DNA from: Escherichia coli | GTDB taxonomy: Bacteria > Pseudomonadota > Gammaproteobacteria > Enterobacterales > Enterobacteriaceae | Length of the DNA stretch: 64,000 nucleotides | Strand: one strand, 5' to 3' | Assembly (NCBI RefSeq): GCF_048403405.1 | Contig: NZ_CP183129.1 | Part shown: positions 11,679 to 12,182 of the stretch, piece after piece | How the letters are laid out: every line of letters begins with the position of its first letter | How positions within the stretch are numbered: the stretch's first letter is position 1 | Translations under genes and position numbers: made by a program | Notes under the pieces: model-generated | Told to the model about the DNA's origin: nothing | The model's database searches: none | The model's input: the letters and a program-made list of their open reading frames with translations, nothing else

Positions 11679-12182
11679 TTATTTTGCTAAAGCCTTACGC
11701 TTGTCTATTTCATTAAGTCTGGTATATACAACATATATTTTTTTTGCATATTGCAGCCTCTTTTTTTTGTTTTCCATTGCAAAACCCGCGTTATATGTCC
11801 CCAGACATTGCCACGTTACCCCACAACGTGAAAAATGATTATATAAAATCTCGGTCCCTATTTTAATGTTCAGACAGGGGTTATCTAACAAATCTCGTTC
11901 ATCTTTTATTATTCCACGTTTTTTTAACATGGGAATGTGCATCTGGTTTATCTGCATTAAACCATAATCAACACTCTTTATATTGTTTTTCTTATCCCTG
12001 TTTTTGCCGATGCTATCATTTTTTAAATTACTTTCAACAAGAGCGATAGCTTTGATCAAATTTGGTTCGATTCTGAAAATTGATCCTGCTTCATTAAAGC
12101 AAGCGCTACTGGCGAAAGACATTTTTGTAATTAATATAGAAAACATGAAGATGGATAAGATTTTAACTTTGGGTAAGCGCAT
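11679..12182 (-). CDS. pbl: Lytic transglycosylase-like protein (IagB/IpgF-type), secreted
   Basis: 167 aa with signal peptide; SLT-like segment ...AIALVESNLKNDSIGKN...DYGLMQIN... typical of small T3SS-associated peptidoglycan lytic enzymes. Confidence 0.7.
   Translation of the reverse strand: MRLPKVKILSIFMFSILITKMSFASSACFNEAGSIFRIEPNLIKAIALVESNLKNDSIGKNRDKKNNIKSVDYGLMQINQMHIPMLKKRGIIKDERDLLDNPCLNIKIGTEILYNHFSRCGVTWQCLGTYNAGFAMENKKKRLQYAKKIYVVYTRLNEIDKRKALAK

Follow-up and report, generated by a model that had tools for sequence, protein, structure and literature searches.

Does the second type III secretion island of Escherichia coli still encode an enzyme that could open the cell wall for its needle complex? 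The question is raised by pbl, a small gene in the window, which is the name used here for the whole 64,000-nucleotide stretch of E. coli DNA that was analysed (RefSeq assembly GCF_048403405.1, contig NZ_CP183129.1). The gene lies in the island known as ETT2 (for the second type III secretion system of E. coli), in the first part of the window. An earlier note, made from the sequence alone, had described pbl as a full-length gene with a signal peptide whose product is a lytic transglycosylase-like protein associated with type III secretion, and had taken this as support for an island that still encodes a functional assembly toolkit. Our preferred explanation, to which we give a probability of about three in four, is that Pbl is a peptidoglycan-cleaving enzyme that helps the ETT2 needle complex through the wall, and that it is produced from an intact allele.

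The pbl gene and its product

11679..12182, minus strand: coding sequence of pbl, a single SLT-domain peptidoglycan glycosidase of 167 amino acids (open reading frame listing; Pfam SLT)
12111..12182, minus strand: predicted Sec signal peptide, codons 1–24, MRLPKVK / ILSIFMFSILIT / KMSFA (hydrophobicity profile and -3/-1 rule)
12033..12035, minus strand: codon of Glu50 (GAA) in a V-E-S motif, the predicted general acid (sequence and alignment)
11967..11969, minus strand: codon of Asp72 (GAT) in the motif D-Y-G-L-M-Q-I-N, equivalent to EtgA D60 and lysozyme D52 (sequence and alignment)

The listed frame starts with ATG, ends with TAA and contains 167 codons (504 nt). Its product matches the Pfam SLT family (PF01464) with an E-value of 9e-28 and a score of 96.6 bits, the gathering score being 21.3, and the match covers positions 2–114 of the 117 in the profile, which places Pbl in the SLT-domain family. 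The G+C content of the region is 33%, and a 504-nt frame at this composition, together with a match to a curated domain, means that pbl is not a chance open reading frame. Among the matches listed, 117 of 120 E. coli homologues are 167 amino acids long, the others having 166, 159, 147 and 147, and distant relatives span 148–168 amino acids. The full-length frame claimed by the earlier note therefore stands, the lengths of the homologues agree with it and there is no truncation.

The open reading frame is an intact allele of pbl, an E. coli ETT2 gene that was already known. The gene order in K-12 is ygeH, ygeI, pbl, ygeK (PMC10652928), and the name pbl is correct because the slot between ygeI and ygeK matches in the window. 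The pbl genes of K-12, O157:H7 and strain 042 have the same locus, neighbours and length as the window gene and are the same gene. An identical protein, WP_001239202.1, is named 'lytic transglycosylase domain-containing protein' by the Prokaryotic Genome Annotation Pipeline (PGAP). UniProt entry Q46790 is presumably the K-12 Pbl protein. The E. coli protein Q46790 is among the closest homologues of EtgA (PMC10880428), and the iagB counterpart in ETT2 has been tabulated as a transglycosylase, under the name 'ipgF' for O157:H7 and strain 042 (PMC7232297, Table 1). The SLT match, the location in ETT2 and the position of pbl in K-12 together uphold the identification of pbl in the earlier note as a transglycosylase-like gene associated with type III secretion. 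The consequence is small beyond correct annotation, this copy being notable only in that the gene is broken in K-12 and in the sampled genomes of the commonest allele class.

Pbl was aligned with the IagB cluster named by NCBI records, with EtgA as found in PDB entry 8URN and with an IpgF sequence that is 100% identical to ipgF of the M90T virulence plasmid. Glu50 is invariant in an alignment with 13 relatives and in another with 117 relatives, and it stands at the position that the catalytic Glu occupies in IagB, IpgF and EtgA, the comparison that the earlier note had proposed as a check. In SLT domains the catalytic Glu lies in an E-S motif where the second helix ends, and in Pbl this motif is Glu50-Ser51. 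In EtgA, E42 is the catalytic residue and D60 is important for activity (PMC10880428, from which the EtgA numbering and residue roles used here are taken). The EtgA residues E42, D60, Q65, N67, Y116, N117 and G119 correspond to E50, D72, Q77, N79, Y130, N131 and G133 of Pbl, and Asp72 is conserved in at least 90% of the 117 relatives. The EtgA disulfide pair, C20 and C89, corresponds to Cys28 and Cys103, both of which are invariant in the 117 relatives, and by analogy with EtgA these residues probably form a disulfide in Pbl.

The AlphaFold model of Pbl has a mean predicted local distance difference test score (pLDDT) of 93.7 and a predicted template modelling score (pTM) of 0.84. When this model was compared with the PDB using Foldseek the best matches were the EtgA structures 8URN and 4XP8, followed by MltE, Slt, MltF, Slt70 and hen lysozyme, with a probability of 1.00 to each of these proteins. 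The model thus predicts a lysozyme-like alpha-helical fold. A sequence search of the PDB with Pbl found EtgA at an E-value of 1.2e-22.

EtgA (rOrf3/L0045, structures 4XP8 and 8URN) is encoded in the locus of enterocyte effacement. Like Pbl, it is a small protein with a signal peptide encoded in a type III secretion island, and the two share the catalytic Glu, the Asp of lysozyme D52 type, the Q/N/Y/N/G residues of the active site and the disulfide pair. Unlike Pbl, EtgA lacks two insertions of five and two residues and has no second cysteine pair, and for EtgA both binding to the inner rod protein and activation by it have been shown. IagB of pathogenicity island 1 (SPI-1) in Salmonella and IpgF of the Shigella Mxi-Spa system also share the domain, the size, the signal peptide, the catalytic Glu and the cysteine pair with Pbl, but both insertions and the second cysteine pair (C120/C126) are absent from them.

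The signal peptide mentioned in the earlier note was assessed by rules (the Kyte-Doolittle scale and the -3/-1 rule) and not by a trained predictor; by these rules the three classical regions and AXA-like sites are present. The N-terminus begins with the basic segment MRLPKVK (net charge +3), this is followed by a 12-residue hydrophobic core from I8 to T19 with a Kyte-Doolittle peak of about 2.6, and candidate cleavage sites with small residues occur after A24, S26 and A27, all immediately N-terminal of Cys28. A hydrophobic N-terminus is found in all the aligned relatives and ends one to three residues ahead of the invariant Cys. The N-terminal layout of Pbl is the same as that of IagB, IpgF and EtgA, and its length falls in the range of about 150–170 amino acids of such enzymes with a signal peptide. 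Pbl is predicted to be exported by Sec. A lipoprotein was considered and rejected as less likely: the context of Cys28 is S-S-A-C with no Leu, Val or Ile at position -3 and the equivalent of Cys28 is a disulfide partner in EtgA. Judged from its sequence, Pbl is more likely to be a soluble periplasmic enzyme than a lipoprotein.

We propose that Pbl acts as follows. Sec would export the protein and a signal peptide of about 24–27 residues would be removed. The lysozyme-like SLT domain, of about 140 residues, would then fold in the periplasm, where it would probably be braced by the Cys28-Cys103 disulfide and perhaps by a second one between Cys120 and Cys126. Glu50, with help from Asp72, would cut the bond between N-acetylmuramic acid and N-acetylglucosamine in the glycan strand, and the local gap made in the wall in this way would allow the ETT2 needle complex to span the envelope. 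Both the enzyme activity and the contribution to ETT2 assembly are proposed here by analogy with the characterised relatives. The reaction may be a lytic transglycosylation, which produces 1,6-anhydroMurNAc ends, or a hydrolysis; the presence of Asp72 at the position of lysozyme D52 leaves hydrolysis possible, and the same two reactions have been discussed for EtgA (PMC10880428). Localisation of Pbl may use the inner rod protein EprJ, as that of EtgA uses EscI, the EscI-EtgA pair being the model for docking at the rod (PMC10880428). The candidate partner, which is suggested by this analogy, is encoded in the window:

8496..8828, plus strand: eprJ, inner rod protein (SctI), candidate docking partner of Pbl (NCBIfam T3SS_SctI; score 90.2 bits, cut-off 39)

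The state of pbl and of its island

E. coli strain 118UI matches the 1.1 kb around pbl with 100% identity, and E. coli TUM1226 and MS 69-1 match the window with 100% identity over its first 16 kb. According to the annotation of the identical genomes the ETT2 island adjoins tRNA-Gly (glyU), and pbl lies between orgA/orgB-ygeK on one side and ygeI-ygeH-ygeG on the other. The gene is therefore inside a type III secretion gene cluster, which is the location of the glycosidases associated with these systems. The ETT2 part of the window (1–16000) has a G+C content of 35%, compared with 50% for the part from 20 to 64 kb. The window starts within the ATPase gene, and the upstream third of the island is visible only in the identical genome. 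The nearest neighbours of pbl are the following:

12652..14028, minus strand: ygeH, a regulator of the HilA family, upstream of pbl (NCBIfam YgeH equivalog; score 1063.6 bits, cut-off 800)
12266..12484, minus strand: ygeI, 72 amino acids, between ygeH and pbl (PGAP coding sequence in an identical genome; YgeI in K-12)
11028..11660, plus strand: ygeK, response regulator of the LuxR type, which converges on pbl at a distance of 18 bp (Pfam GerE and Response_reg; PGAP coding sequence)

The position of pbl downstream of a HilA-family regulator gene, on the same strand, parallels the hilA-iagB module described for SPI-1 (PMC7232297). In ETT2, however, ygeI and a conserved hairpin separate the regulator gene from the enzyme gene, unlike in hilA-iagB. 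The ygeI product has no match in Pfam or NCBIfam, and the ratio of nonsynonymous to synonymous change (dN/dS) of ygeI against K-12 is relatively high, at 0.38.

The frames of thirteen apparatus proteins (EivI, EivJ, EpaO, EpaP, EpaQ, EpaR, EpaS, EprH, EprI, EprJ, EprK, OrgA and OrgB) are uninterrupted in the window, and with the exception of EivJ these proteins cover their NCBIfam profiles essentially from end to end. In the island of O157:H7, eivJ is interrupted by a nonsense codon and sctT by a stop, eprH is frameshifted and orgB is split, and none of these lesions is found here. As far as reading frames go, the ETT2 island in the window is of the intact type, although frames do not prove activity. 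It is at this level that the inference of an assembly toolkit in the earlier note holds, the thirteen frames being uninterrupted here and apparatus frames being broken in O157:H7. An intact ETT2 that includes the accessory wall-cutting enzyme provides a background for testing the assembly of the ETT2 needle complex.

In TUM1226, which is 100% identical, PGAP flags eivJ (1280–2155) as 'partial' and epaO (2155–3102) as 'frameshifted'. Both lesions were ruled out. The eivJ gene is one uninterrupted frame of 291 codons, with Gln where O157 has the nonsense codon, and the 315-residue frame of epaO, from the ATG at 2155, covers positions 3–303 of the 303 in the YscQ profile. A difference of 1 nt near the start of epaO only alters which ATG is chosen, O157:H7 uses an upstream ATG that is out of frame. 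The two flags appear to be artefacts of reference proteins of the O157 type.

The pbl allele in the window shares about 92% nucleotide identity and 90% protein identity with the O157-type allele. The synonymous distance between the two is about 0.24, and dN/dS against the O157:H7 allele is 0.17 for the whole gene and 0.12 for the mature domain only, similar to the values for ygeH (0.12) and ygeG (0.16). Where its frame survives, pbl is under purifying selection. In K-12 the pbl slot has 503 nt and carries the annotation 'lytic transglycosylase domain-containing protein' with a frameshift. The allele of the K-12 type lacks 1 nt at about codon 146 and has the changes G74W, in the D-Y-G motif, and F29S. 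Intact copies are found in O157:H7, ET350, 118UI and TUM1226. Judged from a small sample of genomes of the commonest allele class, an intact pbl is probably the minority state in E. coli.

The decay in the K-12-type lineage extends to other genes of the right arm of ETT2. The ygeK gene is intact in the window and has an internal stop in K-12-type alleles, and several regulatory and accessory genes of this arm have decayed along with pbl in that lineage. An open reading frame of 163 amino acids without a family match occupies the position of ygeF (15080-15571, minus strand), it is intact here and frameshifted in K-12-type genomes.

Of 5426 complete E. coli genomes searched with the 1.1-kb query, 3531 contain it, in every case on the chromosome. 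Of the matching genomes 345 are at least 99% identical over the query and 2936 fall in the band from 90 to 95%; the ETT2 haplotype of the window allele is diverged and in the minority. This divergence suggests either an old island haplotype that has evolved separately or recombination. The synonymous distance from K-12 is 0.13–0.27 for ygeK, ygeG, ygeH, ygeI and pbl, and 0.07 for the flanking gene yqeK.

Several points weigh against an active role of Pbl in ETT2. The same 1-nt deletion is present in all seven sampled genomes of the commonest allele class, namely K-12 and six others taken as an evenly spaced sample of the class with about 91.7% identity, a class that accounts for about two thirds of the rows in the sample. 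Since pbl is a pseudogene in K-12 and in the sampled members of this class, it is dispensable in much of E. coli. The 40 nt upstream of the pbl ATG contain no sequence resembling a Shine-Dalgarno sequence. H-NS is reported to silence ETT2 (PMC4210603), and secretion through ETT2 is unproven and debated (PMC11068852). Mutation of ipgF in Shigella has no obvious effect on virulence (cited in PMC2912269), so that even an active enzyme may be redundant, and a literature search found no experimental study of Pbl. The residues with which EtgA contacts EscI have hydrophobic counterparts in Pbl, but PilT-type enzymes, which have no inner rod, conserve these positions to the same degree; for this reason the conservation was ruled out as evidence for docking at the rod.

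Some of these observations would also be expected if pbl were intact but idle, its frame kept only for want of a disabling mutation in a decaying, H-NS-silenced island where the enzyme is useless today. The shared frameshift in K-12-type genomes, the broken apparatus genes in the O157:H7 island and the lack of a Shine-Dalgarno sequence ahead of pbl all fit with this, as does the widespread mutational attrition of ETT2 described in reviews (PMC11068852, PMC7232297). We nevertheless consider an idle gene unlikely. The dN/dS values of 0.12–0.19, over about 24% synonymous divergence, indicate long-term purifying selection in the lineages that keep the frame, the neighbouring apparatus genes in the window are all intact, and in strain 042 a functional YgeH activates the ETT2 operons (PMC4210603). 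An enzyme that serves ETT2 remains our preferred explanation for the intact frame.

Probable kinship with PilT-type enzymes

Pbl is 39% identical to IagB, 34% identical to IpgF and about 35–40% identical to EtgA. Outside the ETT2 island of E. coli its highest identities are to PilT enzymes; the PilT transglycosylase of the IncI2 thin-pilus operon is 56% identical with one gap over 127 residues, and other PilT-type enzymes are 51–53% identical. The PilT-type enzymes whose context was checked are encoded in pilS-pilT-pilU-pilV operons, both on plasmids (IncI1 and IncI2) and in chromosomal type IVb pilus loci. The IagB profile (NCBIfam NF011856) aligns with Pbl over positions 4–149 of 160 and gives 125.9 bits, this is well above noise and below the equivalog cut-off of 208 bits. 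By this score Pbl is a relative of IagB and not an IagB equivalog.

The second cysteine pair, C120/C126, occurs in 12 of 122 aligned relatives, which are Pbl, a protein that we call P0123 and ten others. Gene context was checked for seven of the twelve carriers; apart from Pbl and P0123, those with a checked context are PilT-type or linked to type IV secretion systems. In a smaller alignment the two insertions of Pbl, of five and two residues, are common to the PilT-type enzymes, so that Pbl has the sequence signature of this group. PilT of the IncI1 (R64-type) and IncI2 plasmids shares the second cysteine pair and the insertions with Pbl, whereas its gene context is wholly different. In a neighbour-joining tree with 100 bootstraps the exact group of pbl and PilT was recovered 21 times and the group of pbl and P0123 50 times. 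This support is weak, so that the case for the grouping with PilT is built on pairwise identities and on rare characters held in common, and not on the tree. On these characters an affinity of Pbl with PilT is likely.

P0123 is the closest relative of Pbl outside E. coli, with 53% identity in a phmmer search. It is encoded in the following locus:

L007 (a 9105-bp contig of Logan SRR26188682), with genes at 72-1169, 2981-4678 and 4662-5168: a SipD-like gene, a regulator and the Pbl-like enzyme P0123

The regulator is a full-length member of the HilA/EilA family (595.6 bits against a cut-off of 589), and its 3' end overlaps the gene for P0123. P0123 has the same four cysteines as Pbl, and the SipD-like gene nearby would encode a tip protein. 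The combination of a HilA/EilA regulator, P0123 and a SipD-like gene means that the module of regulator and enzyme recurs in a second type III secretion locus. A counterpart of ygeI is absent both between hilA and iagB and in this locus, where regulator and enzyme overlap directly.

It is a tentative suggestion, and on balance we doubt it, that Pbl and P0123 share a more recent ancestor with PilT of the type IVb pili of conjugative plasmids than with IagB, IpgF and EtgA. If this were true, a wall-cutting module would have been swapped between a plasmid pilus system and an island for type III secretion while its position downstream of a HilA-like regulator was kept, and the lineage would be recognisable by the additional cysteine pair that its members share. 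The affinity with PilT adds a minor evolutionary detail to the picture of peptidoglycan-cleaving modules shared among secretion machines.

Ancestry apart, Pbl might itself be a PilT-type enzyme with no role in type III secretion, either a transglycosylase captured from a pilus or conjugation system or a general remodeller of the wall that happens to sit in the island. Pbl is closer in sequence to the PilT enzymes, at 51–56%, than to IpgF and IagB, at 34–39%, the carriers of C120/C126, as far as their gene context was checked, are pbl, P0123 and PilT-type or type IV secretion-linked enzymes, the score stays below the IagB equivalog cut-off, and 'pilT' in enterohaemorrhagic E. coli has been mentioned as a member of this enzyme family (PMC2912269). 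The genes around pbl speak against it, however. They are ygeH, ygeI, ygeK and orgAB/eprHIJK, and there are no pilus or conjugation genes among them, hence no PilT operon. The nearest relative, P0123, also lies beside a HilA/EilA regulator and a SipD-like gene, the position of pbl matches that of iagB after hilA in SPI-1 (PMC7232297), and the bootstrap value for PilT plus pbl is only 21 of 100. We regard this as the least probable of the explanations considered, and a role of Pbl in the assembly of ETT2 accounts better for its surroundings.

Hairpins flanking pbl

11659..11695, minus strand: terminator-like hairpin at the 3' end of pbl, with a 9-bp stem formed by 11668-11676 and 11687-11695, followed by C and U8
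12213..12243, minus strand: perfect 13-bp inverted repeat (AACGAGATACTGA ... TCAGTATCTCGTT) in the spacer between ygeI and pbl (terminator scan)

The stop codon of pbl sits in the loop of the first hairpin, and the U-run, which is A8 on the ygeK strand, overlaps the stop codon of ygeK. The predicted folding energy is -11.4 kcal/mol, with a z-score of only -1.3. A consensus terminator scan, whose loop limit is 8 nt, missed this hairpin. A function as terminator is plausible from its layout.

The hairpin in the spacer folds with -16 kcal/mol and a z-score of -5.5, and none of 200 shuffled sequences was as good. The 11-bp core of its stem is identical in four alleles that have diverged by about 8%, the loop varies between them. 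Its tail is not U-rich, so that the repeat does not qualify as a terminator of the classical kind; it could act as an attenuator, affect RNA stability or be a palindrome bound by a regulator.
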